Origin: Paraspadella gotoi
Lineage: Eukaryota; Animalia; Chaetognatha
Reading direction: 5' to 3'
Assembly: GCA_051294375.1 (NCBI GenBank)
Contig: CM119264.1
Span: forward strand, 8,926,764-8,990,763
Length of the DNA: 64,000 bases
Position 1 is the stretch's first letter, and each line of letters begins with the position of its first letter. A model generated the notes under the pieces. It was not told the origin of the DNA. It saw only the letters and a program-made list of their open reading frames with translations, and did not search any database. Positions 8,937 through 54,611 of the stretch are shown here, piece after piece. The translations under genes and the position numbers were made by a program.

Positions 8937-9303
8937 ATGACATCGTCTGAGAAGGTAACACAATTAAACAAATTACTGATTACAAATTACTGTGGCGGTA
9001 TATTCACACCGCCTCACATCCACTTTCCTTCGGCCAATACCATTGGCTCACAGGGGGAACAGACCTTCTTAGGCGTTGTGTTCCATCCACAGTCCTAACG
9101 ACTTCCCTCTGACCGTCCTAGGGTTACCGCGCCAGTGACTGGATCCGTCACTGAGGGTCGGAAGCCCCCAAAGCCAACAGTGAGATTCCCCATCCCAATG
9201 GGCATCACAGGCAGCCCGGCTGCTGCCATAATACGCTAAAATAACCTAAAATAACCTAAAATAACCTAGCGTTTTATATAACAAGTATTCGTCACTGACT
9301 TCA

Positions 9304-9337
<34 letters not shown>

Positions 9338-21900: not shown

Positions 21901-24900
21901 TTTGTAAATAATAAAAATAAGTTAGCATCTCTTCTTAGCAAGTAAGTTATTTGATATATTAAACAGGGACGTTAGTTGCTAAGTATTATGGTAACAACCC
22001 GCTGTTGGCTATAGGGGCTGTGACGCCACCTGTCACTGGCGTTTCCCCTCTGAGCCAATGAGTTTGGCTTAAAGATGCAGGAGGTGAGGTGGTGGGAATA
22101 TACCGCCACAGTATAATGTTATCGAGAGGGATAGAGAAAGAGAGAGAGAGAGGGGGGGGGAAGAAAACAATATTATGCTTAACGACCAAAACGTTAGAAT
22201 TTATCCATTTTGACAATGTGTTTTTTATTGAGACTTTCACATAATCATCACTCACTTTTTTATGAAACATCTTTCCACCTTCAGAAAAGCGACGTTCCTC
22301 ATTTCCACGGCCGCTTCGAGGTCCTCGATGGCGTCGGCCTCGGCATGCCGCTTCCGCCGCATCAGATCGTCGACGCGGCGAAGCTGCTCGGCGTTGAAGG
22401 GTGGCGGGTGGCTTTCGAGGTAGCGCTCTGCGACGCGAACAGAGGCGATCTCGAGGGCTTCGATGAAGGAGTCGAAACCGGCCTGAAGGCCCCGACTTAA
22501 GAGAGCCACCTCCGCGATTCGGACGGTCGGGTTCTTAGCGTTAAGGCCTTGAAAAGAAAAGAGCGAAGATCATTTCGAACCGCAACATTACTCTTTTAAT
22601 CTCATCCATAATTTTTAAAATTCTCTTTTTCCTTGTTTTTATTAGTTGAACTTTCTAATTCCATGTATTTCATTTCTTTTTATTTTCGAGATATATCTTT
22701 TATACATACAATTCTACTTGGAAGTCTTATCCATATTGGTAAAAAAATCATATATAACTTTGGTCCCCCCTCAAAAAATTATCCATTCTCACCTCTTTCT
22801 GTTCAGCCTCTTAGATATTATGATTTTTCATTAATGACTTTCTAACTGAAATGATGTGTGATATCTATTAGAAAACTAGGACAGATTGTAATCTAACCTT
22901 GTGTTGTATAGATGCTCCCTCTATTTCCAGAAGACAACACTGACTGGCCCTTCCCGAATTAAATTATTAAATAAATAAAATATTTTTTAAGAAAAATATA
23001 TATTTGATTAAATGATATAGATTAAATACTAAATCCTTCATAAAATATAAAAATAGAAAATAGTGAAACAAGTAATTTGCAAATTTTCATATATAATTAA
23101 TATATAGATGAAATTGGTACAATCAATATAAAAATTTTTTTTAAAAATATTATATATATATATATATATATCTTATATCTTATTAGTCCTTCTCTCTCCT
23201 TACCCAAATGCCTGGCATTTTCGATCTCCTTCCCAACGTCTTCGTCCGCGGTCGCAGGGAGGTTGTCGCCCAGCGCCTCTAGAACGAAATCGCGCTTTCG
23301 GCGCAGCCTCTCCGCGATTCTGGAGAGAGGCTCCATCACGTTCTCAAGCGGACCCTCGATGTGAAGCTCACGCTCTACTTCTTTGCTCTTGGCGCGATCC
23401 TCGACCCACTGGAGGGTGTCCACGCTGATCGTCCACAGAGTCGAGATCAGCTGCCAGTTAGTCGATTCCGTCGGCCTTAGGAGTCGTAGTGGCAGAGTAA
23501 TAAGCCCAATTTGGTGAACAAATAAAACTATCCAACTTACAGGTGAAGACTGAACTGATGCATGATAACCCAAAAAGCCATATGTGGCTCATATATATAA
23601 CCTTTCCGCAACCGCGAGCGTTTTATCACGATTTTTCTCGCCCCTCCCCCCTCAAAACCTGGTTGTCGTGTCCGCCGTCATAATATCGACCAGTTTGGAA
23701 GCGAATGACTCCAACTCTTTGGCAGTGAGTTTCGATTGGAATTTGGCGAGGGCATCGACCGCTACCTCGAGGATCCCCGAGTCAAAGGCTTCGGAAACCC
23801 GCGTCCGAGCCTCTCGTCGATCCTTTTCTTCCGCCTCGAGGATGCGGCGGAGAACCTGGAGAAGGGGCGTTCGTCAATTTGTTGTCATCCATACATTCAT
23901 CCTCCTTCACTCTCACCTCCCCGTCGATCCCCGCGTCCATCAATCGCCTAGTCGACTCCTCCTCGCCAATGGGATGCTCCGCCTTGGCCGCGACCAACTG
24001 GGCTATCTCCTGCAGCAATTTCGTGATGTGGCACGACTCTTTGCGCAGCGTCTCTTGACGGGTCATCTTCGACGTCTTCGTCAAATCGTCGACGGCGTCG
24101 ACGGTGTCCACGCTGGCGTCCTCTCTGCATAGATAAAGGGGAAAGATGATATCAAGGAGAGAGAGACGTATATATTATATATACATATATTATATATATA
24201 AATCCACGCCCAATCCCATCACCCCATTCCTCTCACATCTCCCACTTCTCCACGTCCCCATTGAAGTTATCATTGTCTTCTTCATCGTCGTCGTCGCCTC
24301 CATCGTCGCCTTCAGCATAATCGTCGAAGCCCAACTCCTTCAATCGCCTCGTCGTCTCGTCGGCGACGAGCAGCCGCGTCAGCACCTCCAACTCATCCTC
24401 CGGCATATCCACGCCGAGGATCCTGGCCTCCATGAGCGCCGATTTGACGCCTACCGCGTCACCTGCGTCCATGGCCTTCCGCAGCCAGCGCCGCAACCTT
24501 TCAGCGTCTTCGTCGCGCCGGTTTAGCGCCGTACGGAGGGCGTCGCGCCCCCGGTGGAGACGATAGGAGTCCGACGTGCCCGTCCCTCTGTTGTCCGGGG
24601 GCACAATGAACGTAGATTGAATGAATACAAGATTTTGGGCTGTTATTCTTATTTTTGTTATTAGAGTACTTAATAACCTTTTAGTTTAATATTTTATTTC
24701 CTTTTAATTAAGAGTGGAATTGATCGCAGTTACACGGATGGTTGGAGGTATAACAGTCTGATTATGGCGATTAAGATCACGGTAAGGGCTTCTTTTCGGT
24801 AGAGGTTGTGGCGGTGTGAATATACCGCCACACACTTTCCGCCTCAAATCACCCCATAACACTCTTCCCAGTTGTCATGGCGACCTGGAGATCGTGTCCG

Positions 24901-25376: not shown

Positions 25377-27467
25377 TTCCGCATCGGCGTTGCCCTTCAC
25401 CCTCTCTTCCTTTTCTTCCTTCGATATTTTCTCTTCTTCCTCATAATTCCTCTCATCTTCCCCCCACTCGTCCCACTCCTCCCACTCCTCCCTCTCCGCC
25501 CCCCGTCTCTTCTTCTGATTCATCAGATTCAAGACCTCCGGCATGAGGAAGTCGTCTCCCTCCATTGCCGCCTCCTCTTCTCCTCCCGCTCCTCCCCAGT
25601 CTCGGCCGTTTCTCCTCGTCGCCGTCGTCCCCATCTCGAGGAGAGACCGGAGGAACGATTCGGAGGCGGGGAAGGCCATGGTGGTGCGGAGGAGCTCGGC
25701 CGCGGTCGGTCGGTCGGGATGTTCTTCGGAGAGAAATCTCTTGAGCCACTGGAGTTCGACCAATTTCATCTCGTTCAATTCCACCTTCGGGAGGGAGTGG
25801 GAGGGAGGTGGAGGGAGAGAGGGAGTGGGGGGAGTAAGGCCGAGAAGACAAGCGATTAGAAGAGAATCTCGCGAACGGCGTCTATGTAGTCAACCTAATA
25901 AGTTAATTATAAACTTAAGAATTCGTATGCTAATGTCCTACATCGTAACCGAAAGCGCTGCAATAACATTAATCAAGAAAATGTTATGGTTTTAAAAGGT
26001 TCGCTTATGAAAATTATTTTATATATAATTGCCTTGCCCGATGACCACGCACCGAATCTGTTCCTCCCCTCCCCTCTCAGCATCTGCCACAAACATCCGC
26101 TCTCGGCACCTGCCACACTCCAGCGTGCATCTCCTTGATGGCGGATTTGAGGTGAGACATGCTTCCGGTCCGCAGCAGCCGATTGTACTCGACCTTGCTT
26201 CGCTTGTCCCTCTCCTCGTATTGGCGCGAGAGGCGTCGACAGGCGTCTCGCGTTGGCGGCGCCGTGGAAGGATGATGCCGAATTTCTTCCAGCGCCGCGC
26301 GGGAGAGGCGCGGCAGCACCGACGGCAGAGTCTTTGAGGCGACGGAGCCGGCGTCGTCGAGGACGGCTTCGAGGAAGCGCCGCTCCGCCTCCGAGGCGAA
26401 TGAACCTGTTGTTGTTGGTATGGTTGGCGATGATTGTTTCGTTTGATTGGTAGCTGTTGTAATTATCATTTGCCATGATTGTTTAGTCAGAAATAAAGGG
26501 AGAGAGAAAGGAAAGAAAGGAAAAGAGAGTGATTGGCGAAGCGACAAAAGAATCGTGAATGGAATAGGTAAAGAAAGAGTGCAAAAAAAAAAAGAACAAG
26601 AAAACGAGAGAAAGAGAGAGAAAATAAGTTGAAACTTCATGTACCTCATATACTAGTAAAATCAATATTTTTCTCCTCATAAATAGCACACTAACATACA
26701 TACATACAAACAAACAACCCCTAACCATTTTCCTTGACGATCTGCAATCCTTCGACGATGCCGTCCCAGTCTTTTCTCTTGACGGCGTCATCGAACCGCT
26801 CCAGACTTTCCTCGTCCAGGACATGCCTGCCACAAGAGGGATTTTCGTTTTTACATAAACTTGGCATCGATCGGCACCAATTTTGCAACGACAAAAAAAA
26901 TGAAATGTTCATCTACAAATATTTTTTCTGTACATTTTCAGCCATCGCTTGAGCACCTGTAACCCTGCAACTTGTTGAAATCGTCGACGAGCTCCTCCGG
27001 GATCACGTCCGAGTTTTGGTTGACGAGATGATCGATCAGATCCGAACTGATCACGTCTAGAATCTCCGTCACTTGGAAACGAATCGTGAAGTTATAAGTG
27101 AATTTTTATATTTTTTTTCTTTGTGGTTTTGTAATTTTTAGTTCAAATGTTTATTATTTTGTTTTATGTAAATTTAATTGTATTTTGACTTTCTTTTTTG
27201 CTATTTAGAATAGTTAGAGATGAAACGAAAAATTCGTTGTAATAGCAATTTTTATTTTATTAATGTACATGTTTCGACTCTTAGTTTTTGCGAGTCTTCA
27301 TCAGCAAGTGAATTCAATAGACCAAAATTTTTAACATTAGTTTGAGAGAGAGAGAGAAAGAGAGAGAGAGAAGTTTCCAACAAAGAATTGAGCAAGGATA
27401 GTGGTCAGATGTGAGGACAGGTGAAAGTAGGAAAGAGAGAGTAAATGATTTTTGAAATGGTGAAAAG

Positions 27468-27498
<31 letters not shown>

Positions 27499-27969
27499 CA
27501 CACAGGGATCAATACATTAGGCAATGTACAACAGTGAAAATTTTTTTAGAAAAACTAAATATTTAACAAAAGTAATAATAAATTAAGAGAGGAGGGCCTT
27601 CGGCAGGCCTATCAGGTCAGAGAGATATTCGAGTGGCACTAGGCATTTTTCCAGCCGGATCATTACCAGATCCAGCCCTGTCCCATTCCACCACAATATC
27701 ATCTCAGCCTATGACAGGCCAATGACCCGACTACATCGTTAACGTCCCACATTTGCCCGGCTGGGGGGGGCAGCTCATTTTTGAGCTCTTTTTCTTACCT
27801 TACTATTTCACTTATCTTTAACTTATCTATCCCTCATCACTTATTCTTCTATTTCATTTTCTCTTACTAACAATCATCAGCTAACAATTAATTTATTATT
27901 ACTTTTGTTAAATATTTAGTTTTTCTAAAAAATTTTCACTGTTGTACATTGCCTAATGTATTGATCCCT

Positions 27970-28004
<35 letters not shown>

Positions 28005-28100
28005 CTTTTCACCAATTTCAAAAATCATTTACTCTCTCTTTCCCTACTTTCACCTGTCCTCACATCTGACCACTATCCTTGCTCAATTCTTTGTTGGAAA

Positions 28101-28131
<31 letters not shown>

Positions 28132-29152
28132 AAACTAATGTTAAAAATTTTGGTCTATTGAATTCACTTGCTGATGAAGACTCGCAAAAACTAAGAGTCG
28201 AAACATGTACATTAATAAAATAAAATTGCTATTACAACGAATTTTTCGTAAATTTAATTAAAAATGGACACAAAATTATTTATGACGCGGATTTATATAC
28301 ACGAAAAGCGGAGCAGCGTGGCGCAGTGGGAGCGTGCTGGGCCCGTGCTGGGCCCATAACCCAGAGGTCGATGGATCGAAACCATCCGCTGCTACGAATT
28401 TTTTTTTAATGTTAAATTTTGATTCCGATTGAAAGGCTATTTTTGGCTGTGAATTCGCCTCATCTATTTCTTTGGTGTGAGTCATAAAATCACTTTTTAG
28501 GTTAAATCCACTTCGCACCAAGTCAGTGGTCACTTTCCACCTTGTGTCGGTTCCAGCGACGCACGACGTCGATCGCTCTCGATGCTGAGCTTCAGCGTCT
28601 TCTCCTCCTCTCCCAAATCCTCCTCTTCTTGCTCCCACTTCATTTCCTGGCTATCTTCCTCTTCTTCGTCCGGCTCCTCCAATATTTTCGGCGGATCTTG
28701 TGGAGCGGCGCTACCGAGAGGCGCCATCATCGACGCTGACCAAAACAACGCCTGTAATAAATGCAGAGAGTTCAAATCTAAATGATCTTTATGCTACTCA
28801 CTTTGCAAGCAGGAAGATTCTCCCTCCACAATAAACATAGAACAGTGGCAGACAGTTAATCTGGCCTTAATAACAACACAATCATCGCTCGAATATTTAT
28901 AAAATGGTGATTTGGTTTTAGAACCTTTGACGCCGGTTCAAATGTCGACGCCTTCTTCGGATCCGTGAATGAGACGGTCGGTCGACCGTAAGCGCCGTTC
29001 GAAACAGACGCGGCACCGACAGCTCGTCGGTAGGCGTCTCCCTTGACGGGCGCATGGCCGTAACGGCGGGCGGCGGAAGGCATGGAGAACGCCACGGAGT
29101 CTGTAGCGGAATCGGCGGGAGACGCGTATCGCCTAGAAGACTCCGCCGCCAT
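12948..29152 (-). CDS. Very large multi-exon alpha-helical repeat protein with a C-terminal dynein-stalk/MTBD-like module (KY/hillarin C-terminal type)
   Basis: About 20 or more GC-rich minus-strand exons with recurring LxxA(I/L)xxxDxxxLxxA units (LKDAVEEL, LTMALELGDPKSLESA, LRKAMDAGDAVGVKSAL); C-terminal EISEVCSYTKPPHCTELVLRSFLLLLG...TWDKIKQLL...VDRKDVLHSSRPLVVFYRF. Junctions at both ends checked in phase; not every internal junction verified; start ATG 29152 tentative. Confidence 0.7.
15897..15960. mobile_element. Divergent terminal fragment of the TGTGGC...GCCATA family
   Basis: ATGGCAACAG...TGTGATGCC(n10)GGCATCTC matches one end of copies A/B read on the opposite strand. Confidence 0.45.
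16282..16536. mobile_element. Structured TGTGGC...GCCATA element, copy B (255 bp)
   Basis: Perfect 4-bp TSD AAGT (16278-16281 / 16537-16540); multiple GC-rich hairpins. Confidence 0.9.
21987..22110. mobile_element. Structured element copy C (internally deleted, opposite orientation)
   Basis: TATGGT...CCGCCACA ends; perfect TSD GTAT (21983-21986 / 22111-22114); retains GTGAC..GTCAC and AGCCAA..TTGGCT hairpins. Confidence 0.85.
24763..24832. mobile_element. Minimal remnant of the structured element (terminal hairpin)
   Basis: TATGGCG...TGTGGCGGTGTGAATATACCGCCACA; no clear TSD. Confidence 0.55.
25193..25372. repeat. (CT)n compound microsatellite in intron
   Basis: Directly visible. Confidence 0.95.
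27258..27319 (-). ncRNA. Minimal type I hammerhead ribozyme motif (left arm)
   Basis: Reverse complement of the 28156-28217 motif. Confidence 0.65.
28156..28217 (+). ncRNA. Minimal type I hammerhead ribozyme motif (right arm)
   Basis: CTGATGA(28171)-A-GACTC-loop-GAGTC-GAAA-CAT-GTA; palindromic ACATGT stem III; stem I is weak or bulged. Confidence 0.65.
28312..28394 (+). tRNA. Initiator tRNA-Met(CAT) with an 11-nt internal tandem duplication (pseudogene or sequence error)
   Basis: A1:T72 AGCAGCG/CGCTGCT acceptor, GGG/CCC anticodon stem, GATCGAAA T-loop, downstream T-run; GTGCTGGGCCC is present twice. Confidence 0.85.
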
Positions 29153-30059: not shown

Positions 30060-30950
30060 TCTACCTAATTTTTCGGTGGGCGCGCCCCCGTCTTTTGATG
30101 CGGTGGCCCCCCAGTTGCGCCGGCCGAAAATCGTCCTCCGTCGATTCGAACGGAAATGAAGTGACGCTGGAGTCGAAGGCCCGATCCCGAAAGGTCGCCG
30201 GCGACCAACGATGCACACGCCGGCGCCGTAAAGGCGACCGGCGCTGATTGGTCGGCGTCGTCGTCGAGACAGCGTCGTCATCCTCGGAAGAGACGAGAGT
30301 CGACGCCGAATCAGACGCGGACCTCTGCGTCGTTGTAGTTATAGTTCCCGTGGAATCGCGAGACGCGTTTGTCAACGACGAAAAAGATGCGGAACTTAAT
30401 TTGGAGGATGGGGGAGCGGTAGAGAGGAATATCTTTGTCTGGACATTTGGTTTTGACGAGTATCAGTGTCTGTTTAGTGTCATTATCTCTCTCTCTTTCT
30501 CTCTCTTTCTACTATTTCTCTTAACTATTTTCGTTTTATGATAGTTTTATAGTTGTGGAGTCTGTTGTGGAAATCTAATTTTCCGAAATCTGTTTACAGT
30601 ACCGTTACTTTAATTTTGAAGTCCTTCTAATTTTACTGTAACCTTTGTACGACGACTAAAAGGTCGTTGAGGCCGCTGAGTGTGTGTTCATGACCGTATC
30701 AGTATATTCATTCATTCATTTATTCATTCATTCATTCTTTCTCTCTCTCTCCGTCTCTCACTCTCTATCCCTTTCCGTCGCCGAGGTTAACGACGACGCC
30801 GACGACGACGGCGTCGCAGTCGAGGGGCTGGGAAGGCGGCGATACTCGAGGACGCGGACGAACGGCTTCCGTCTCCGTGTCGAAGGCCTCTGAAGGGGCC
30901 TAAGGGGCGAAGGGCGGAGGACGAGGGTCTCCGACCTCGATGGGCTGTTG
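29160..30950 (-). other. Probable low-complexity S/T/R-rich coding exons (5' extension of the helical-repeat gene or a separate gene)
   Basis: Exon-like composition and open frames 29299-29721 and 30061-30375 (AG|GTAG donor), but no consistent model could be built. Confidence 0.35.
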
Positions 30951-32598
30951 GACCATGGGGCAAATTCAAATCATGCTGTCTCAAAGATTTTTTTACTTTT
31001 GTAATTTTTAAAACAAAAATGTCAGACGTTTAACTACGCACCTTGATAGACCATTTTTAATAATTTAAACTCCTCCTTATTCGTGCTACTCACCCTTCGT
31101 CAAAGGCCGTCATCCCTGACAGCAGTCGATAATCTCCCCACATGATTTCTTAGTTGAGTTTAAACAGGACAAATTCGATCAACCTTACACCTAACAAAAA
31201 AGTCTCACGATCGAGCTACGTTTATGGACAAGCTTTAATTTCCCCATCGCTAAATAATTACGTAAGAACGTATTCTAAACAATCGCCTTAAGAATTACCA
31301 GCAACGTTGTAACTTAATTAACGGTCAATCGCTTTTTATATCATCTGATTGATTAAATTAATAGATCAAAATGCTTGATAATTTCCCGATTAGATAGGGT
31401 GACTGACATTAGTTCGACAGCTAAGCGTAATGTTTCGTATTTTTATACTACTCGAGAATAACTCTTTGCACCTCTATTTTACATCGATGTTGTCTGACAC
31501 GTGACGCCCTCAATTTAAGTAATTTCCCCTTCCTCTAATTACTTTTTGTTTCTTCTAGTTCTAATTACTTTTCGATTTTTAAACTTAAATTTTTTTTCAT
31601 TCCCATAATTTTTAAGATCGAAATTTCTGTCAAAAATCTGGAAAAATCATGAGCCGAAGAAACGAAATGGTCGTTAGTATCAGTTCGCTTCGATCCTTGC
31701 GAAAAGTAATGAGAATCATGGGAGGAAAAAAAGAGACGATTAATGGTTTAATATAAAAAAAAAAAACATCTGTCACTTATTGTTGATTTTATTTTATTTT
31801 TTTTTTAAATTGTATTTTTTTTCGTGAAATCATGTCATAGTTTTGCTTCATTTGTTACACGATACTGTCAATCTAAGGTCATTGCCAAAGCTCGGGCAAA
31901 GTGACCGTGTGGATTGACCGGCTCGGAGAAAGAGGAGAGAGAAAGGGTTTAGACAAAAGTCCGGTGGTAAGTCGCCTCAATAACAATAAAAAATAAGAAT
32001 AAATTTTCTATTTTTTTCTCATTATTTCATTTCGCGTTTTCGAGTTATATATAATTCGGCTGATGCCAAGGTAATCGTATGATAAGGCCAAGAAGAAACC
32101 GAACTCAAAACTTTAATAAAGCTTAATCTCAAATTGAGCACAAGATTCGATGACCTTTTTTAATTAGGAGGTGAACAAGGCTGCTGCAGCGGAGTGAGAC
32201 AAAGAGATGATTTTTTTGCACCCAACGTTTTTTTTTTTTCGACGACCGTTGATCTCATTAAGCATTAGGCGCCACGATATAAGAATAGTATCTATTATGA
32301 ATGTATTATTTTATTAGTAATGCCTCTCTCTCTCTCTCTCATAATTCATTCATAATATTTTTTAATTTTGCTAATGAATTACAAAGAAGTAATTATTTTA
32401 ACTTCATTAAAAAACAATTAAAAATTAGCAAATTAATATATACTTTTAAACGATTTATTTCAAAGAGAAATAAAAAAGCAGAAAATTCTAAGACATCGAA
32501 AAAGGAAGGAAAAAACGTTTCAACGTCTTCAAAGAAAAAAGATATCAATCCGTAGCAGCGTTTGGTCCTAAACGGGAACCTTCACGAGTCCGATTTCC

Positions 32599-33899
32599 TC
32601 AGCTTCCAACCCGACTTCTCCATCCGCTCGTCGACTCCCCCCTTCTCTTCTCGGTAATGCTGCGGATGAGGCCGTCGTTATTGCGTATCTTGCGAATGGC
32701 CTCCAATGCCTCGTCCAGACTCTGAACTCCCTTGAAGTAGAGTTTGCGGCGAAGTCGATCTTCGCGAAGACCATCGAGGAAGACGTCGAGCAGTCGGTCG
32801 CGGAAGGCCCTCGATTTTATTCGCTCTGGTGACGGTTATGCATAACATACTTATAAAAATTTAAAAGAACCAGAAAAAGTTAACTATTTGTCTTTTATAT
32901 ATATAACTCGCTTTAAGCCTCATTTACGCATTTTTTCTAAATCTAAATCATTTTTTTTAAAATCTAATTTAAATTTTTTTTTTCATTTTTAAAAACTATT
33001 TATCATTACCCGGTGAGTTCATGACTTCACACATGAATTAAAAAGTTTCCTTAAGCCTCTCACCCGCTCCTCCGTCATCGATGGCCAAAAACTCCAAGAG
33101 ATTCTTGCATCTGTGGCCAAAAGCGAATGTCGTCTCGTTGTCCACTTGTTTCACCGTTTCCGCCAATCGGAGCCACTCGTCGCGACTCCTGCCGTCGAAC
33201 AACATGTCGAGTTTGGCGCCGAAATCGCGGAGACTGTCGCCGGGGAATTGGCGCATCAGAGTCTTGGCCGAGTTTCTAATGGTTAAAAATGGGGAGGACG
33301 AATGTGATGAAGAAAATGGTGAACGAAAGAAAGAATAAGTAGCTGTCGGTGAAGGTCGTAAATACTACTGCAGCCACATCGGGTATATCTAGACTGTTAT
33401 AGCAACATTATAGCCCATTATAGCCCATTGGCCAACACCGAGGGAAGTCATTGGGACTATAGTTAGAATGCACGGTTGGGATGGTACTGTTCCCCCTCTA
33501 AGCAATTGCGACGTGAGGCGGTGCGAAAATACCGCCATACTGTCACAATTTGCCCTAGAATATAAAATTTTTACAAAAGGCAAACCTACATTTACGACAG
33601 ATGAGAAATTTATTACTTTATTTTAATCCTAGTCCACAACCTTCCCAGCCCTCTCGCTAACCCCAACCTCGACCCTTCCAGTACCTTTGTTTCTGATCTT
33701 CAATGGCGTCGATGATGACCCTCTTCCCGGCGACCTGATCCAAATAAGGGTCTTTAGAGTAGACGCCGAGAAAGTCGCGGAACCAGTCGTCAAATTTCAT
33801 GGAGGACGTGAACATTTGGAAGAGCTCCTCGCCCTCGTCGTCCACGTCGAACTCGCCGGGCGGCGGGGCCTTCGACGACGTGGGCGCCGGTGACGACAT
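32599..33899 (-). CDS. Retrotransposon Gag capsid-like protein, 3 exons, 217 aa (candidate domesticated gag)
   Basis: Exons 33899-33685, 33275-33064 and 32825-32599 join in phase (654 nt); FTSSMKFDDWFRDF, KQVDNETTFAFGHRCKNLL and RDRLLDVFLDGLREDRLRRKLYFKGVQSLDEALEAI follow the Ty3/gypsy capsid pattern; no pol, zinc knuckle or flanking LTR pair. Confidence 0.75.
33398..33539. mobile_element. Structured element copy D (intron 1 of the gag-like gene)
   Basis: TATAGC...CCGCCATA ends; perfect TSD CTGT (33394-33397 / 33540-33543); shares GAGGGAAGTC, TGTTCCCCCTCT and GTGAGGCGGTG motifs. Confidence 0.8.
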
Positions 33900-35531
33900 T
33901 GCCTCGTTGCTTGGGGACGAATCTGTCCTTTTTCTTTTTTCCTTTTCCCTTTTCTTTCTTTATTCTCAACTTTCGTCTTCTGTTCTTTAATAAACGTTTC
34001 TGTTTATGACGTTTTTAATTTAATCCTTAACCTTTCTTTATTTTGAATTAAAAAAAGTATTGAGTCTCGCAAACGTTTAAAAAGTTACTTAAATACGTAT
34101 GCATGGGTAATTATATTGGCATCAGAGTTTAAATACAGTAACAAAAAAATATCGATCCAGAAAGGACTCGGCAGATTAAACCGGCCGAACTCTGCAGAGC
34201 TGTCGAACAATAATAAAACAGTTTTTAAAAAATGGATGACAAGTTTTGAATTCTTTATTTTTTCGCAGCCGAAACTGAAGAATCATATTACATGTATAGT
34301 ATACATATCCTACAAAAGTTGATTTTGAATCTAATCTTAAAATATTCATAAGTATAATTTCTGATATAGTTAAACGTTTAAAAAATTATTAGTGAGCCCT
34401 AATTTGATCCTTTGCAAGGCAGCAAAAAAATGTCGTGAGGTTACTCAATCTTTTAATCGCTCCACCAAAATAGCCACGCCTTTTATAATTATTTTTTTCT
34501 GCAAAAATAATATATTAAATGTTGAATATATTCTCGTTTTTTATTTATTTATTTTTTTTTTGGTGAAAATTGCGACTTCAGAAAAAAATAGTCAGATGAA
34601 AATTATTACTTAGGAAATCGATGAGCTAAACGGATTGATGGGTGAAAAACAGAGAGAAAGAGAGAAAGAGAGAAAGAAAGAGAGCAAACAACTTCTACCT
34701 TCTAACTCGCCGAACGATTTCGATCCAACGAGAGATGTACGATCACCCTGTAACGAAGGACGACTACAGGGAGTAACTATTAATTCTTGGACGAAAGTCA
34801 GCAAAAAATAAAGACATCCTTAATTTTCAAGTAATAATAAAATTCTAGTAAAGCTTTTTAAAAGAACACCGCAAAACAAGAGGAGATATTTGAGAGTATT
34901 CTTTCCCTTGATTCGACAGGCTTTTCTTCGATGTGCTTTCACCAAATTTTAACATTCGTTACAATTTCTCATCATTTGTGAAAAGTAATCAAACCGAAAT
35001 TTAAACGAATGATGACAACTTTTCTCGTTGCTATTGTGGAAAAGAACAACGATGTCGTCGACTGTAGATTCCGTAACGCAATGTCGGTGTCTAACATGCG
35101 AAAAATTACTCGGCAAAATTGTGCCATGTTATGCCAAATCCTTGTCATTTTAAACCATTATACAACAGCAATCATCAAATCGATTCAGCAATTCGACCAA
35201 CTTGCCTTCTTAGTAACTTATATCCGATAGCCATCGAGGGCCATTTCTGTGAACATACAATCCCTCATATACTAACATTAGTGACCCCAAAAAGCTCCCT
35301 TTCTTAGACTATCAAGCACTATTTCAGCATTCAATAGGTCGATTTCCAGGCTGGAAAAACGGGAATGATTTTCAAAACGTTAGTTTCACAAGAACTTCGC
35401 TCGAATGGTAGAGCGCATATTTCGTACCCACGAAGTATAGCGAACCGTCATTCTTAAATTTACTAAAAATTTGTCCGAAGGTTTGAATTCCATAACTATT
35501 TTTGAGAATACTACTACAAACTTAAATTAAA

Positions 35532-35623
35532 TGCAGTTGACAGGAATTGAACTGTGCGCGGAGACCGTAACTGATTTCTAATCAGTTAGCAATCAGTCGC
35601 CTAAACCACTCGCTTACAACTGC
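35532..35623 (-). pseudogene. Degenerate tRNA-Ser with an 11-nt insertion in the anticodon arm
   Basis: Perfect acceptor GCAGTTG/CAACTGC, CGAGTGGTTTAGGCG D region, long variable arm, imperfect T-arm. Confidence 0.65.
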
Positions 35624-36420
35624 TGGTGTTTTTCGAAAGATGTACTTAGGATTTTTCAGGGATTAATTTAATAATTCACTACGGTCAGTTTTGCTTAAGG
35701 TATATAACAACTTCTATTAGGGAAAATTATCTTTGGTGTTGGGTAACTGGATATGTATTTCTCACGGAACTGAACCAAACATTACGTGTTTAATCTGTGA
35801 GCTTTGACGAGGAAAATAACTCTGTAAAACTTCCCTAAGTTATGAAAATAGATATGGAATAAAGTGATTTCAAACTTAGTAGCTAGGCAAAAATATTAAC
35901 TAATAAGTACAGCTTTAAAAACAAAGCAAAAGTAAATGGAGTTTTTGTTTTATTCCAAATATTTTTTGGACATATAAAAATGAACTATAACTTCAATCTT
36001 TCAGACAAACGGGTCAAGGAGTGCTAAAAACTATTCTGTGCACATTCTACATTTAATTCGATATTTTTTATAACGAGATTAAAGAAAAACAGGAATGTAA
36101 ATTAAAAAAATAATAGAAGCACAATTTAATACCAAAAAAGAAAGTTGGGAGGCGACACGAACCGCTTTTGGATAGAGTAAGTAAAATAGGAAAACAGCAT
36201 AAGTCGGAGACGTTTTTATTACACCGCAATGAGAATATAGCGTTACAACGCTGTTATATAAGTGTTAATAACTAAACATGTATAAATAAATATGATTTAT
36301 ATAATACTGTTTATAATTAAACTGAACTAAGAAAAAAGTTTTAACACAATTTTAAGTCATTTGAAAACAGGTAATTATAATCATAGGTTTCAAGATTTTT
36401 AAAGATTACGTGCGTTTCTT

Positions 36421-38182
36421 TTACATATTGTGCCAAATTTTTCGACCCACTTATATGGGCGATTGGATCTCGAAGAGCACAGGGCCAGAGCCAAATTCGC
36501 CTAAAAAAAATAAAGACCGACTATTAGTTCTACCCTAAAGCAAAATTTCATCTCATTGAGAATCCAAAAACAGGAACGACGATAAAAGAAATCTCAAAGA
36601 GAGAACATTACACAGCAACGTTTTCATGAAAAATAATTAGCCAAAAGAAAAGTTTTACCTCCATATCGGATAACTTCATCCGTGTTTCTCCTGAACCTAA
36701 AGGTTGGAGCTCTGGGTTCACGATCCAGGACGCGGTCGGCGTCGTTCGCGGGTTCCAGGGTATAGCTCGCGAGGTTGGAGCAGGCGTTGAAGATGTAGGG
36801 GCCGTACTTTTTTAGCTCCGAACGGCGAAGGGGCCCGTGCGACACGCGCATTGTGCGGCGAATTACTTCTGCCTTAGGCATGTAATCGCCACGCTGCAAA
36901 TTCAAGCACTTGTTTCACAATACGAATATACCATTTTAACTCAAATGCTATTTTTTTTTCCAAAAAAATAAAAAGCAAAAAATAAAAATTCAATTCTTTT
37001 TAAAACTTACAATTTATTCCCATTCATTCTACTCATTCCATTCATACTCATTCATACTATTCAATTCACCCTGAGCTTGACGATGAGCTCCCAAACGGTC
37101 TCCGGTGGTTTGACGACCGACCGATCCAGGTCCATGATGAAGCAGCGCCTCTTGTCGACATCCTCGATCGCCGTCTTGGCGACCTCGAAATCGTGGAGGA
37201 TGCGGGCGCGCTGCCAAGTTCCGATCTTCGGCACCTCAACGATCTCCAACGAGTCAGAAGGGATTTCCACGTGTTCCGTGAAGGCCCCGGAACTAAAAAT
37301 GGTGGGATAGACTCGTAAATAAAGAATAATTTGATGCGTAGGGCGTAGCGCAGATAAATAAATTAATAATTGGATTAAAATTTATACATAACAGCAGTAT
37401 ATGTCTGTGTCAGTGAAGGAGATATTTGTTGTGCTTATACGAGATGACGGGAATTGTGTTTAAAATTATCGACTACATCGTAAGTGACCTACCTGTCACC
37501 ATCCAAGTATCCGACTCCGCAGAATCCACGACGTTTGGCCAAACCGTAATTCTTGTGCCAGAGATAAAGTCCAGTAACGAGGCCGATGGTCACCAAACCT
37601 ATAAAGTGCCAAGAAAAAATTTCAAGACGTTAGAAAATGGGGGAAAAAAAAAAATTAAGATGGCATTTAGCTAGATATTTTTTCCCTTGGATACAAAAAG
37701 CGAAGTTTTAAAAGAATTATCGCAGTAAAAAAAATTTACATTTTACTGCCCACATAACAATTTTTATATTCAATGCTAATATGATCCCAGCCAGACCCCA
37801 GCCCCACCGAACCACTGACCGCAAGCGAGGACAAGCGCCAGCGTGACGCATCCCGAGCAACGGCGTCTTTTTGACGGTTTCCTCACGGAGATGGCGACCG
37901 GAACCGGGAGCGTTTCCCCTTCCGGAAGAGTATCCTTGACCAGAGAGGAAGAGAAGACATTAAAATAAGTGGCAAGAAAAAGTTATAAAATACTAAAAAC
38001 CTCAGATAAAAAGAAAGAGGGAGAGACAGAGATAAATCAATGTGAAAAATGAAGAAAAAAATTGTGAAGGAGAATGACAGGCGGCGTCGCCCGGAGCTTG
38101 CCTCTGGTTTGCACGGGATATCTCCAATTTCCGGATCCGGGGGTTTGTACGGCTTCTCCGGCGCGACTTTTATGATTGTCAT
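36421..38182 (-). CDS. ITM2: Integral membrane protein 2 (ITM2/BRI-like), type II TM plus BRICHOS domain, 6 exons
   Basis: MTIIKV start; TM CVTLALVLACGLVTIGLVTGLYLW; GFCGV; BRICHOS ARILHDFEVAKTAIEDVDKRRCFIMDLDRSVVKPP...GDYMPKAEVIRRTMRV...YGPYIFNAC; furin-like RFRR near the C-terminus. Confidence 0.9.
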
Positions 38183-42220: not shown

Positions 42221-45200
42221 TCACATGGTGTCGTAGCCAGACTTCTTGGCGTCAGCGTCTTCCCCGTCGACGGCGAGCTGCTCCCTGACTCGACTTCCTC
42301 GCTGCTCGACGATGACGCGACCGTCAGAGTCGATATCGGGGATTGTGGGTAGGGCGTGGCCTGGCGAGTCCAGCCGATGAGCCTGCGGGGTCCGGTGGGG
42401 CGTGTGGGGCGTAGCAGGGGGAGGGGGTAGGGCCGGGCAGGACAAGCGAGTCGATCGGCGTCGGGCGGAGGCGGCGGCGACGGAGGCGGAGGCAGCGTTA
42501 GTGGAAGAGGCGTGGGCGGTGTCGGCTCGCGGATCGGCGCCATTCGCGCCGGTATTTCCGGCCGGCGGCGTCGGATGGTGACCCGCCCACGAAGAGACCC
42601 GCGTCGGAGCCGGTCGTAAAGACGGCGGGGGCGGCGCGGTGGCGGCGGGCGACGGCGTCATTCCCGCCGGAAGAGCGCCGGGAACCTGCGGCGTTGCCGA
42701 TGAGGTGGCGACGGAAGAGGAGGAGCGCAGGTTTTCCGACTGAGTCTCGATAGCTTGCCAGAGGAAGTGGTAGTCGTCCTTGGATCGCCATAAGCCTGGC
42801 CGTTGGTAGTGGTAGAGCTTGGCAATCTTAGGTAGGGNNNNNNNNNNNNNNNNNNNNNNNNNGGAAAGTGAATTGCAGTACTTCAAAGTCCTCTATTATT
42901 TTCATCAAAGTAATGAATAAGCCTTCGGCTGATAAATCGATTTCGATTAATAAACACAATAAAAAATAAATTGGTTTCGATTGGGAATCGAATTGCTGTC
43001 GTCGCGTCGTCCGCACGCGAAGCAAATTTGATTTCTAATCACGTGATTTTTTTTGAGTCACGTGACGAATAAATCGAGTTGGCGAATTCAATTATTCATA
43101 GAATCTAATCTGAAAGGAGGCGTAGCGAGTTTTATTGCCTTTTTTTCTTTGTGTAACTGTAATTTTAAATTAAAGTTTAAAAACCAATATTGACTCACGT
43201 TTTAAATTGTCCGAAAGCAGATCCTCTTCAACGAGTTTTTTTGTTCTCCCAGTTGATTTAATGTACGTCAAAAAAAATATCAATAATCTCAATCTTCCTT
43301 TCTCTCTCTCACCCCGTATCCTTCAAACACCGCATCTTTCTAGGCGAAGTGAACACAACCATCCAGTACGGCTGCATGCTGGTTCGTTCCCTCTCCGTCT
43401 CCAAACTGGCGACGCACACAGTCCGCGTCTTCGCCGTCCGGCACACAAAGCAAAAGAAGAAGCAGGAGACGCTCGTCCAGCAGTTCCACTACACCGAGTG
43501 GCCCGACCACGGAGTCCCCTCCCACGCCCTGCCCCTGCTCGCCTTTGTCAGGAATCGGCCAACGCCAACCGGAGGAAGCGGGCCGATCGGTGAGTTGGGG
43601 CAGCGATGGATCGGGCGGCAGGAGATGCAGTGAGAGAAAGCTTATAACTGTACTATATATAAAGATTATAACTGTACTATCATGAAATTAAAAAGATAAA
43701 CATAACACTGATGTTAGGTAAAGTATTCCACAGCTATCGGAATTTGTTTACGATAGCGAAGATAATTAATATATTAATTAAAAACATAATGATTTAAATC
43801 TCAAAATTTCATCGATTTTCTACGCAGTCATCCATTGTTCGGCCGGCGTCGGCAGAACCGGGACCTACATTTGTATGGACGTCGCCCTCCGTCAGATCGA
43901 AGCCGAAGGAGTCGTCAACATCAAGGGATTCCTCAAGCAAATTCGACAACAGCGGAACTACTTAGGTGCGCGGGACAGCTGCTTAATAATTCATGTGTTG
44001 ATGAAGACTTAGCAGACAACTAATTGTATTCGGAAATGTCCTCTTGTATTTCTAATGCATCATTGAGTAGCTTCCTTTGTTTTTTGTTTTCTTTCTTGTT
44101 CATGCGGTATTTTTTTAATTTTCAACAGTACAAACGGAAGAGCAATACGTCTTCATCCATGACGCCATCTTGGAGGCGATCCAGAGTGGCACACACTCAC
44201 ATCCCCGTCGAACGGGTTGGGGAGTTTATCCATCTTCATTTGCTGGAGAAGAACGCGGCGCTTAACGGAATGTCGCTTCTCCAGCATCAATTCGAACTCA
44301 TAACCAGTTACCGGCCCAAAGGTGAGGTTTAACGGCATAATATTTTGGGAATCGTTGGTAGATGAAGATAAACCTAATCTTGATAAATGAAATTTATGAC
44401 CACCAGAATACAAATACACATCCGCGCGCAAAAACTGCAATCAGTACAAAAACCGGGAAGTCGCTGCCGCCTCGACGCCTACGGAAGATTCCGATTCTGG
44501 AGTTGTTTACATTCAAGGTAATATACAATTTTGTGATAAATTTTATTCATTTACGCTCAAAGTTTGTTCACTTAATTCTTTGTTTATTCAGGAGGCGTGC
44601 TGCCGATAGAGCACACCCGCGTTCCGCTGATTCCCAAACCGGCCGTCGATGGTTCCGATTACATCAACGCGTCGTTTCTTCAAGGTACTAAAAGAACCAC
44701 TTAGGAATTTAGACAAAGATTAATTTTGAGGACGTTTTGTAGATCTTGTTACATTTTTTATTCGCGGTTAGTAAGCGGTCCCATGGTGTAGTGGTTAGCA
44801 CGTTGGACTTTGAATCCAGCAGCCCGAGTTCGAATCTCGGTGGACCTTTTTTAATTATATTTTTTATATTATTGCTTATTTTTTCTCCTCTTTTTTATAT
44901 TCAAAATATGTGATCGTTTTCTCTATAAATAATCCTCTAATTTCATTTATCACCGAATTTTTCATTTTTTCTCTTTTTACGCAATCTTAATTTTGTAGGC
45001 TTCAATGACCGCAACGAGTTCATCGTAACCCAACACCCCTCGACGACACCATCGGTGACTTCTGGCGCCTCGTTTGGGACTACAACATTCGGACTGTCGT
45101 CATGCTGTCTCAGGTCGACCCACAAGCAGGATTCCCGCCTTCTGGCCGGAAAAAGGGGACAAACTCCAATACGAGGTAAAAGAGGGTTTCATTAGTTATT

Positions 45201-46033
45201 TATATCATTTTGTAAATTAATTATAAATTAATTACATAAAGATCCTTCACTAAAACGGTTGAACCGAATTCAATTTCCCTATTTTCTTCAGTCTTTCACC
45301 GTCGAACTGAAGGAAGAGATTCACCATCTCAACTGCATCTTCCGCGACGTTCAGTTGGAGTCGGGGGAAGAGGAGGACGGCCTCTTCGTTCGCATCGTCT
45401 ACTCCTCTTATTGGCCAGAAAGCTGCACTCCGCTTAGGTGAGCTTGCTGAGGCTTGTTGTAGCTAGAATGCAGTACTCTGCGCTGGCGATGTTGCTGAGA
45501 ATCTTAGTCTCTAACATTAATCGTAAGTGAGATTGCCAAATATTTTTATTAAATCACTAAATCACTTAACTTGAACATTTAGCTTGGGCGGATTCACTAG
45601 TTTTGAGGTTGCGAGAATGCTGCATCTTGCTCAGGTGATCTGACGCGTTGCTAGTTTGGCTTTTGAATTGCCCTCCAGAGTCCAGACGAGTATAAAAAGA
45701 TATTTAGAAGCAATCATTCCCGCGAACCAACTCCTTTGATTAATGATCACTCCTCGACCTCCACACAGCACGTGCTACGAGCTGATCCACACTGTTCGGC
45801 AACACCATGGCGGCGTAGGTGAAGGTCCCATCGTCGTCCTCGACAAGTTCGGCGCCACTGAAGCGGGTTGGTTCTGCGCGCTGTTCACTCTCTGGGATCA
45901 GCTGCAGCAGGACGAGTTTGTCGACGTTTATCAGGTGAGACGGATCTAATTAAAAGGAGTGATATATGTTCACTTATTGGTATTTTTAACATAGTATTGT
46001 GGTCCAATTGTTTAGTAAAGTCTCTCATATTGT

Positions 46034-46114
<81 letters not shown>

Positions 46115-49100
46115 CTCTCTCTCTCGCGAGTAACAATATGAGAGACTTTACTAAACAATTGGACCACAATACTATGTTAAAAATACCAATAAGTGAACAT
46201 ATATCACTCCTTTTAATTAGATCCGTCTCACCTGATAAACGTCGACAAACTCGTCCTGCTGCAGCTGATCCCAGAGAGTGAACAGCGCGCAGAACCAACC
46301 CGCTTCAGTGGCGCCGAACTTGTCGAGGACGACGATGGGACCTTCACCTACGCCGCCATGGTGTTGCCGAACAGTGTGGATCAGCTCGTAGCACGTGCTG
46401 TGTGGAGGTCGAGGAGTGATCATTAATCAAAGGAGTTGGTTCGCGGGAATGATTGCTTCTAAATATCTTTTTATACTCGTCTGGACTCTGGAGGGCAATT
46501 CAAAAGCCAAACTAGCAACGCGTCAGATCACCTGAGCAAGATGCAGCATTCTCGCAACCTCAAAACTAGTGAATCCGCCCAAGCTAAATGTTCAAGTTAA
46601 GTGATTTAGTGATTTAATAAAAATATTTGGCAATCTCACTTACGATTAATGTTAGAGACTAAGATTCTCAGCAACATCGCCAGCGCAGAGTACTGCATTC
46701 TAGCTACAACAAGCCTCAGCAAGCTCACCTAAGCGGAGTGCAGCTTTCTGGCCAATAAGAGGAGTAGACGATGCGAACGAAGAGGCCGTCCTCCTCTTCC
46801 CCCGACTCCAACTGAACGTCGCGGAAGATGCAGTTGAGATGGTGAATCTCTTCCTTCAGTTCGACGGTGAAAGACTGAAGAAAATAGGGAAATTGAATTC
46901 GGTTCAACCGTTTTAGTGAAGGATCTTTATGTAATTAATTTATAATTAATTTACAAAATGATATAAATAACTAATGAAACCCTCTTTTACCTCGTATTGG
47001 AGTTTGTCCCCTTTTTCCGGCCAGAAGGCGGGGAATCCTGCTTGTGGGTCGAAGACAGCATGACGACAGTCCGAATGTTGTAGTCCCAAACGAGGCGCCA
47101 GAAGTCACCGATGGTGTCGTCGAGGGGGTGTTGGGTTCATGAACTCGTTGCGGTCATTGAAGCCTACAAAATTAAGATTGCGTAAAAAAGAGAAAAAATG
47201 AAAAATTCGGTGATAAATGAAATTAGAGGATTATTTATAGAGAAAACGATCACATATTTTGAATATAAAAAAGAGGAGAAAAAATAAGCAATAAATATAA
47301 AAAATATAATTAAAAAAAGGTCCCACCGAGATTCGAACTCGGGCTGCTGGATTCAAAGTCCAACGTGCTAACCACTACACCATGGGACCGCTTACTAACC
47401 GCGAATAAAAAATGTAACAAGATCTACAAAACGTCCTCAAAAATTAATCTTTGTCTAAATTCCTAAGTGGTTCTTTAGTACCTTGAAGAAACGACGCGTT
47501 GATGTAATCGGAACCATCGACGGCCGGTTTGGGAATCAGCGGAACGCGGGTGTGCTCTATCGGCAGCACGCCTCCTGAATAAACAAAGAATTAAGTGAAC
47601 AAACTTTGAGCGTAAATGAATAAAATTTATCACAAAATTGTATATTACCTTGAATGTAAACAACTCCAGAATCGGAATCTTCCGTAGGCGTCGAGGCGGC
47701 AGCGACTTCCCGGTTTTTGTACTGATTGCAGTTTTTGCGCGCGGATGTGTATTTGTATTCTGGTGGTCATAAATTTCATTTATCAAGATTAGGTTTATCT
47801 TCATCTACCAACGATTCCCAAAATATTATGAGAATACCTATATGGGCCGGTAACTGGTTAATTTTCGAATTGATGCTGGAGAAGCGACATTCCGTTAAGC
47901 GCCGCGTTCTTCTCCAGCAAATGAAGATGGATAAACTCCCAACCCGTTCGACGGGGATGTGAGTTGTTGCCATCTGGAATCGACCTCCAAGATGGCGTCA
48001 TGGATGAAGACGTATTGCTCTTCCGTTTGTACTGTTGAAAAATTAAAAAAATACCGCATGAACAAAGAAAGAAAACAAAAAACAAAGGAAGCTACTCAAT
48101 GATGCATTAGAAATACAAGAGGACATTTCCGAATACAATTAGTTGTCTGCTAAGTCTTCATCAACACATGAATTATTAAGCAGCTGTCCCGCGCACCTAA
48201 GTAGTTCCGCTGTTGTCGAATTTGCTTGAGGAATCCCTTGATGTTGACGACTCCTTCGGCTTCGATCTGACGGAGGGCGACGTCCATACAAATGTAGGTC
48301 CCGGTTCTGCCGACGCCGGCCGAACAATGGATGACTGCGTAGAAAATCGATGAAATTTTGAGATTTAAATCATTATGTTTTTAATTAATATATTAATTAT
48401 CTTCGCTATCGTAAACAAATTCCGATAGCTGTGGAATACTTTACCTAACATCAGTGTTATGTTTATCTTTTTAATTTCATGATAGTACAGTTATAATCTT
48501 TATATATAGTACAGTTATAAGCTTTCTCTCACTGCATCCCTGCCGCCCGATCCATCGCTGCCCCAACTCACCGATCGGCCCGCTTCCCTCCGGGTTGGCG
48601 TTGGCCGATTTCCTGACAAAGGCGAGCAGGGGCAGGGCGTGGGAGGGGACTCCGTGGTCGGGCCACTCGGTGTAGTGGAACTGCTGGACGAGCGTCTCCT
48701 GCTTCTTCTTTTGCTTTGTGTGCCGGACGGCGAAGACGCGGACTGTGTGCGTCGCCAGTTTGGAGACGGAGAGGGAACGAACCAGCATGCAGCCGTACTG
48801 GATGGTTGTGTTCACTTCGCCTAGAAAGATGCGGTGTTTGAAGGATACGGGGTGAGAGAGAGAAAGGAAGATTGAGATTATTGATATTTTTTTTGACGTA
48901 CATTAAATCAACTGGGAGAACAAAAAAACTCGTTGAAGAGGATCTGCTTTCGGACAATTTAAAACGTGAGTCAATATTGGTTTTTAAACTTTAATTTAAA
49001 ATTACAGTTACACAAAGAAAAAAAGGCAATAAAACTCGCTACGCCTCCTTTCAGATTAGATTCTATGAATAATTGAATTCGCCAACTCGATTTATTCGTC

Positions 49101-53797: not shown

Positions 53798-54611
53798 AAT
53801 GTACGATGTGAACCTGGAACCGTGCTCCGGGGGCCTCTTCCCCTCCCATTCGCTCCGCCGCGAACAACAAAAAAAAAAGTGATAAATCGTCTGACCAAAA
53901 ACATTAAAATATTTTACGATCGTCGGTCGCCTCCGTTTCGCGTTCCGAACGTCGTTGTCATGGTCGTCGTTGTTGTCCGCGTCGTGTTTATATCTCCATG
54001 ACGCCGATATGGAAAATTCAAAATGAAGGATGATAAAGAAAAGTCATAAGTCACTGAAGTTTTGTGCCTAATAAGTCCAAAAATAAACTCAATGATTGAC
54101 TCAGGTCTACGTACTGAACAAATGGAAACAGGCCGGTTGTCTGCGATGCCGAGCCCGGCCTGGCATCTCACCTCTTGGCTTTTTCGGGCTTTGGACATTC
54201 AGTGGCTGTGCGAGCAACTGGCGCAGGTACACTACTACTAGTACCGTTTAGCTCTGCCAACCCAGAGGGAAGTCGTTAGGATTTTAGACGGAACGCACCG
54301 CAGGGATGGCGCAGGATTGCATGAGGAAAGTCAGAGGTGAGGCGTTGTGAAATTTCTGTTACACAACGTTTAATGTCCAATATCCTCCGGGTCCTTCGGG
54401 TGACAAGTTTGGTATTCAGTATTATTACTTGCAGTTTTAATTCAACAGCATAAAAACCTTTTAGATCTGCTGAAGTTTTATCAGACTGCGCGTGCATTTG
54501 TGACGCGAATGGGATCTAGATAAGGAAGTTGAGTAGGCATAATCTCGAGGAAGGGAATCCCATAGAGTATATGATAAAGTCATAAAAACGTAACTGGAAG
54601 GGGCTGAAGAT

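Follow-up and report, generated by a model that had tools for sequence, protein, structure and literature searches.

Host genes derived from retrotransposon Gag include tetrapod Arc and the fly genes dArc1 and dArc2, whose products share an extended N-terminal strand, a four-helix N-lobe and a helical C-lobe; in dArc1, the strand is described together with four helices in the N-lobe and five in the C-lobe, the latter having a dimer interface common to retroviral capsids (PMC6938703). PNMA2 is reported to form shells without RNA cargo; its C-terminus lines the lumen, and the authors regard the acidity of this C-terminus as the probable cause of the missing RNA. Some knuckle-less PNMAs are described as having a K-R rich region (PMC10945824). 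Deep Gag co-options outside the vertebrates include Crtg1 in beetles, Crtg14 in fungi and Gagr in Drosophila, which are compared here by description: Crtg14 is reported as Bel-Pao-derived, fused to PEX14 and putatively interrupted by a GT-AG intron in the part that stems from gag (PMC8321522), and Gagr as having a membrane anchor (PMC8956099). Deep domestication of Gag is rare: the main account of the survey by Wang and Han covers 2,011 eukaryotes and arrives at 14 cases, seven of them in animals, all vertebrate or insect; among the 14 as described there, none lies in a spiralian, and an intron in the gag region is given only for the fungal Crtg14 (PMC8321522). According to a mammalian survey, genes with an intron-split capsid region can be detected less readily by genome scans (PMC10516033), so the true count of domestications may be higher.

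The gene described here lies on the minus strand of the window (the whole stretch of DNA analysed, 64 kb) and is very probably a domesticated Gag capsid gene, spliced and conserved in related sequences. It represents an independent domestication with introns inside the capsid region, in a lineage that is probably spiralian. Like Arc and the dArc genes it is Gag-derived, and the Arc/dArc lobes match the structural model of its family (Z 6.0-7.4), whereas no sequence similarity between them was detected and identity in the structural alignments is only 4-20%, which points to a separate origin. The family protein has neither the matrix coiled coil of Arc nor the zinc knuckles of dArc1, and it carries a basic tail. 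A basic tail in place of knuckles recalls dArc2, and the dArc proteins are close in size to the 217-residue window protein. Two introns interrupt the capsid region of the window gene, whereas those of Arc are listed as 3'-UTR introns (PMC3257199). The best structural matches of the family model are PNMA2 and MOAP1/PNMA4 (Foldseek ranks 1-3). Membership of the PNMA family was rejected: an N-terminal RRM-like domain is absent (only ∼35 residues precede helix 1), and the host is an invertebrate, whereas PNMA is mammalian. The protein likely works like Arc, dArc or PNMA2, to judge by analogy, but belongs to none of them: the searches brought up no link in sequence, and its flanking domains are different. 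The family is a real and old invertebrate Gag domestication with capsid introns, apparently undescribed, in that the literature searched, with incomplete coverage, gave no prior description of it.

Gene structure and splicing

The coding sequence comprises 654 nt (217 residues plus the stop codon) drawn from three exons. The features of the gene, all on the minus strand, are as follows, in the direction of transcription.

34699..34730 (-), 3' end of a non-coding 5' exon; the loose end of X9 behind 33981 has a single match in the window, starting at 34701
33980..34698 (-), 5'-UTR intron, 719 nt, GT-AG; X9 loose end with a unique window match
33685..33979 (-), exon with 80 nt of 5' UTR, the ATG at 33899 and codons 1-72; sequence, X9 and model
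33899-33685 (-), coding exon 1, 215 nt; sequence
33276..33684 (-), coding intron 1, 409 nt, GT-AG, phase 2, codon 72, within the capsid N-lobe; skipped in X9, relatives break there too
33064..33275 (-), coding exon 2, 212 nt, codons 72-143; sequence, X9, homologues and model
32826..33063 (-), coding intron 2, 238 nt, GT-AG, phase 1, codon 143, within the capsid C-lobe; skipped in X9, relatives break there too
32599..32825 (-), coding part of the last exon, 227 nt, codons 143-217 and TGA; sequence and model
32326..32598 (-), 3' UTR, at least 273 nt; X9 contig 28 spans 32326-32825
32315-32310 (-), candidate AATAAA; sequence

Codons 1-72 encode a Pro/Ser-rich acidic arm, the conserved N-terminal strand and, from the N-lobe, helices 1-2 with the beginning of helix 3; codons 72-143 encode the end of the N-lobe, the linker and the first C-lobe helices with the major-homology-like motif; and codons 143-217 encode the remaining C-lobe, the long last helix and the basic tail (the final 32 residues have a net charge of +6). 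GC content is 0.56-0.57 in the coding exons (GC3 0.72), 0.43 in intron 1 and 0.25 in intron 2, and a stop codon lies in frame 5' of the ATG.

An open frame alone is weak proof of this exon model, since 74 of the 152,743 two-intron GT-AG models tried leave an open frame of at least 199 residues to the same stop. The three-exon model is singled out by the joints in sequencing run X9 and by full-length homologues that are free of gaps at both joints. Nine of 11 sequencing runs, none of them recorded as RNA, contain most of the stretch, X10 and X11 almost none of its words, and four of the 11 were compared: X9, from a single study and presumed (a guess) to be RNA, and the DNA runs X6-X8. Contigs of X9 skip exactly 32826-33063 and 33276-33684 (joints 32825|33064 and 33275|33685), and neither coding joint occurs in any of the three DNA runs. 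Spliced as well as unspliced versions of the same homologues occur. The capsid gene is expressed as a host-type spliced transcript (one run, presumed RNA).

The original prediction, made from the letters alone, had proposed three GT-AG exons giving an intact frame of 217 residues and had named RNA evidence for both junctions as a check. Both junctions are seen in X9, with the same reservation about the nature of that run, and the two coding introns stand as proposed; the third GT-AG intron, in the 5' UTR, had been missed. The X9 contig extends 372 letters past its aligned part at the 5' exon, which may include further exons.

Intron 1 also holds a dispersed-repeat relic (68%, ∼33428-33537) with a short GC-rich hairpin, detected by blastn against the window, where at least four other pieces of the same repeat occur (16282-16537, 8991-9231, 22041-22113 and 54122-54309). 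Rfam gave nothing credible inside the capsid gene, the one snoRNA match having an E-value of 0.31.

A conserved family with old introns

A search with exon 2 returned nine protein clusters at 71-76% identity, and 23 family members share 67-74% of their aligned residues with the window protein. Their sources are contigs of 0.6-1.9 kb in Logan, ENA and JGI; they may mix orthologues with paralogues, and no NCBI or UniRef protein is among them. Across the ten proteins compared, a core of 170 residues aligns without a single gap and 96 of its positions are invariant; the substitutions are conservative (mean BLOSUM +0.38 versus -1.32 for random pairs), and the frame is intact in every full-length homologue. 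Such a core, with its conservative changes, is a proxy for selection at the protein level only. Pattern searches for related loci gave 376 and 326 matches in metagenome contigs and 87 in viral contigs, of which none was confirmed.

The age of the introns can be read from ten shorter entries, each of which agrees with a spliced member for the length of one or two exons before diverging, as genomic read-throughs would. The break falls exactly at 72|73 in six of these ten fragments and exactly at 142|143 in six of ten. The matches of P0011 and P0020 end short of the intron 1 break because a substitution near it stops the matching block; P0025 begins at an internal Met, and P0031 diverges early at its far end. 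The residues past the breaks (Tyr or Trp at intron 1, Gly at intron 2) fit GT donors in phase 2 and phase 1, respectively. In the tree, the window protein pairs with P0003 (100/99), on the opposite branch from the sequences that supply the broken fragments. Both coding introns are therefore older than a protein split of ∼30% and, by this comparison of sequences, are old and vertically inherited. The shared intron positions and the gap-free core among relatives bear out the proposal of an old domestication, and the positions themselves clearly exemplify how a formerly intronless gene gains introns. As evidence on shared descent, they are an indirect substitute for synteny or for a tree congruent with that of the hosts. 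In P0031, the frame stays open through intron 1, and retention of this intron would add a peptide to the N-lobe.

Gag ancestry and loss of the remaining element

As judged by profile comparison, the family has credible distant relatives only among the Gag proteins of an LTR retroelement. When a profile built from 15 members was searched against 1.84 billion representatives, nine matches resulted: six family members, two Gag proteins (P0028, E 1.1e-7; P0029, E 3.5e-5) and one repetitive chance match, P0030 (E 4.6e-4), a cysteine-rich repeat that was discarded as a relative. Aligned with hhalign, the family and the Gag proteins match at a probability of 96.1 (E 3.3e-9) over 154 columns, nearly gap-free and at 21% identity. 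P0035, a cluster mate of P0029, carries three CCHC knuckles, as does the overlapping P0040, which adds a DSGS motif. We take this motif to be of protease type, and Pfam did not call it. A search with the joint alignment gave 16 matches and added only further pieces of the same Gag element. P0028, P0029, P0035 and P0040 are thus read, from their sequences, as Gag and Gag-protease pieces of an LTR retroelement, for which no RT or integrase was recovered.

This JGI Gag (P0028, P0029, P0032, P0035, P0036 and P0040) resembles the family along its capsid region but adds an acidic linker, the knuckles and the protease-type motif. It is the nearest relative found, and its status as donor is only putative. 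The gene stems from the capsid part of an LTR-retrotransposon Gag, likely one of the Ty3/gypsy type; between Ty3/gypsy and Copia, the Copia capsid scores Z 6.4, level with the Ty3 N-terminal domain. Pfam Retrotrans_gag (PF03732) was hit by one of eight homologues, below the cut-off (E 0.0072), and none of the three single exons matched Pfam. The kinship with a knuckle-bearing Gag nonetheless agrees with the capsid origin that had been proposed, and the three capsid motifs quoted with that proposal are all present. Beyond the family, the unnamed Gag sequences P0035, P0039 and P0040 have up to three CCHC knuckles, and their capsid region gave no match to a Pfam family.

The capsid gene stands apart from pol and LTRs. 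None of the 30 window frames scanned belongs to an RT, protease or integrase family; no LTR-like direct repeat occurs among the largest 20 of 36 repeat families in 30500-37500; no second copy or other Gag-like frame was found in the 64-kb window; and a CCHC knuckle is missing from all ten family proteins examined. No variant letter appears in the coding exons among the listed contigs at 85% likeness in the three DNA runs, so no close second copy was seen, with contig depth in sequencing runs not being a measure of copy number. The window frames, the repeat families and the ten proteins thus agree with the predicted loss of zinc knuckle, protease, RT and LTR pair. An active LTR retrotransposon was rejected on these absences, to which integrase is added, and on the introns in gag.

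The short basic tail that had been singled out as a possible RNA-binding element is present in all ten family proteins, with a net charge of +4 to +7. Ahead of helix 1, the arm varies across the family and is acidic (-3 to -5); overall, the protein has a slight acidic charge (-1 to -6).

Predicted capsid fold

Structure models were made for the homologues P0003 and P0008 and stand in for the window protein. The P0003 model, built from 15 family rows, has a pLDDT of 52.8, and the capsids of PNMA2, Arc, Ty3 and Copia ranked first against it (Z 5.5). The P0008 model (70% identical; 15 family and six Gag rows) reaches a pLDDT of 79.2 and a pTM of 0.67, with two of five models above 70. It predicts an extended strand, a four-helix N-lobe and then a C-lobe, both lobes being whole and free of gaps in the family. 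In the numbering of the window protein, the N-lobe spans ∼36-97 and the C-lobe ∼103-190; intron 1 sits in helix 3 of the N-lobe and intron 2 within the C-lobe.

When the P0008 model was compared with 48,161 chains by VIA, ranks 1-19 were all retroviral or retrotransposon-type capsids, the first unrelated chain appearing at rank 20 (Z 5.6). The best match was the PNMA2 capsid, with 139 residues aligned over both lobes (rmsd 9.5) at Z 8.6, which falls below the caution level of ∼13 for helical bundles. Taken singly, the lobes superpose more closely: the N-lobe on that of Arc (Z 6.7, 68 aligned, rmsd 2.7) and on the Ty3 NTD (Z 6.4, 72 aligned, rmsd 4.6), and the C-lobe on MOAP1 (Z 7.6, 98 aligned, rmsd 3.2) and dArc2 (Z 6.5, 84 aligned, rmsd 2.6). 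The best ten Foldseek rows were all capsids, with a best E-value of 7.1e-3 and none at 0.001. In a viral structure library, a herpesvirus protein without relation to capsids of this kind took the top row, and most of the rows below it were Gag or pararetrovirus coat proteins. Solved structures, searched twice with profiles, yielded chance matches only, with no capsid, Arc or dArc chain at E <=10; the absence of any Arc or dArc chain led to the rejection of Arc/dArc orthology. A two-copy complex prediction, run without an alignment, scored 0.00 and was counted neither for nor against.

The individual structure scores are modest, and the case is carried by their agreement with the sequence evidence. 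Together they predict a two-lobed capsid fold of the Ty3/gypsy type with a four-helix N-lobe and a C-lobe. The capsid fold that was to be sought with Foldseek and related tools is thus predicted for a homologue. Of the findings named beforehand as contrary to a domesticated capsid (no capsid fold, unspliced introns, dispersed copies), none appeared: there is a predicted capsid fold, both introns are removed by splicing, and close dispersed copies were not seen.

Proposed function and alternative explanations

On balance, we favour the reading of the locus as a Gag-derived host gene whose product makes small, self-assembling shells like those of Arc and PNMA2, with an inward, RNA-binding basic tail. 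By analogy with these systems, dimers of the C-lobe and rings of the N-lobe would assemble into the shell, the acidic Pro-rich arm would lie on its outside, and the basic tail would lie inside and bind RNA, standing in for the lost zinc knuckles. A basic tail placed where PNMA2 has its lumenal C-terminus would bind RNA and could replace knuckles; a capsid fold does not in itself imply RNA cargo, because PNMA2 shells carry none. That the 217-residue protein still forms shells at all is, by the same analogy, somewhat probable. Packaging of RNA by the shell, for storage or for transfer between cells, is a more tentative proposition, which we would place short of probable. More doubtful still is the boldest version, an independent Arc-like, RNA-carrying capsid in a spiralian lineage, of an age sufficient to have gained two capsid introns and exchanged its knuckles for a basic tail. 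If it were true, virus-like transfer of RNA between cells would be a means to which animals have turned repeatedly, outside tetrapods and flies as well, and the 217-residue protein would represent a natural RNA-packaging shell of minimal size. With both lobes and little else, the protein offers a simple test of whether shells and RNA cargo recur in tamed Gag, and it is a candidate small delivery shell.

The alternative nearest to this reading, which we consider unlikely though worth serious attention, keeps the domestication but makes the capsid a non-assembling interaction module, a dimer or peptide scaffold comparable to SCAN, the Arc N-lobe groove or Gagr. The very tight conservation of the family would fit a housekeeping partner interaction, and the protein has no knuckle. 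There is also precedent, in that the rat Arc N-lobe is reported to bind peptides in a cleft that is filled by the N-terminal strand in dArc1 (PMC6938703) and Gagr has been proposed as an adaptor (PMC8956099). However, the two lobes, the distance between them and the strand that precedes helix 1 are all kept free of gaps in the family, with no host domain fused, and in dArc1 the N-terminal strand is described as belonging to the capsid domain itself (PMC6938703). A restriction factor, binding or co-assembling with the Gag of a resident LTR element and poisoning its particles in the manner of Fv1 or Ty1 p22/Drt2, is a distinctly weaker candidate. The capsid-only architecture would suit it, the C-lobes of Ty1 p22 and Drt2 are among the structural matches, and related Gag elements are present in environmental data, their hosts being perhaps other animals; but the nearest Gag is only ∼21% identical, which makes co-assembly doubtful, and change within the family is conservative where rapid divergence would be expected.

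The two remaining explanations question the domestication itself. That the gene still belongs to a mobile element, or is what remains of one in decay, is very improbable. It could draw on the kinship with Gag, on the high-copy repeat ∼350 nt past the 3' end and on the repeat relic in intron 1. Set against these are three spliceosomal introns, two of them common to relatives that have diverged by ∼30%. Such introns would be lost in retrotransposition. The window, moreover, offers neither a further copy or Gag-like frame nor an LTR pair among the largest 20 repeat families, the coding exons are invariant among the listed contigs of the three DNA runs, and all full-length homologues retain the frame. 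Least credible of all is a chance likeness, by which an ordinary small helical protein would merely resemble a capsid: the Z-scores stay below 13, the Foldseek E-values above 0.001 and the Pfam match under its cut-off, but sequence profile and fold concur, and the family-only model, built without Gag rows, already put the PNMA2, Arc, Ty3 and Copia capsids first.

Genomic surroundings

The capsid gene lies downstream of a multi-exon ITM2/BRICHOS gene on the same strand (36627-38182, -). Between the two is a tRNA-like element (35532-35623, -) that scores 35.9 bits in Rfam and was not called by ARAGORN. On the other side, a short high-copy repeat (31867-31980) lies ∼350 nt past the observed 3' end of the capsid gene; each of the four runs stacks many divergent contigs there.

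Further away, a 3.2-kb inverted duplication (42863-46038 and 46128-49303, 98.6% identical) contains PTP99A-like exons and a tRNA-Gln; it adjoins the sole N gap of the window (42838-42862) and is possibly an assembly artefact. The best named matches of a PTP99A-like exon of the window were in molluscs, at 52-55% (one exon, word-limited search), which hints at a divergent spiralian. A second inverted repeat (27225-27586 and 27888-28249), 365 nt long and 98% identical, with arms ∼300 nt apart, is foldback- or MITE-like. Close to it, at 28312-28395 (+), ARAGORN calls a tRNA-Ala(TGC); its CAT triplet is preceded by a tandem duplication of 11 nt, and it resembles an initiator tRNA-Met and is probably a pseudogene. 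Exons of a DEG/ENaC amiloride-sensitive channel gene occupy 9299-12112 (+).
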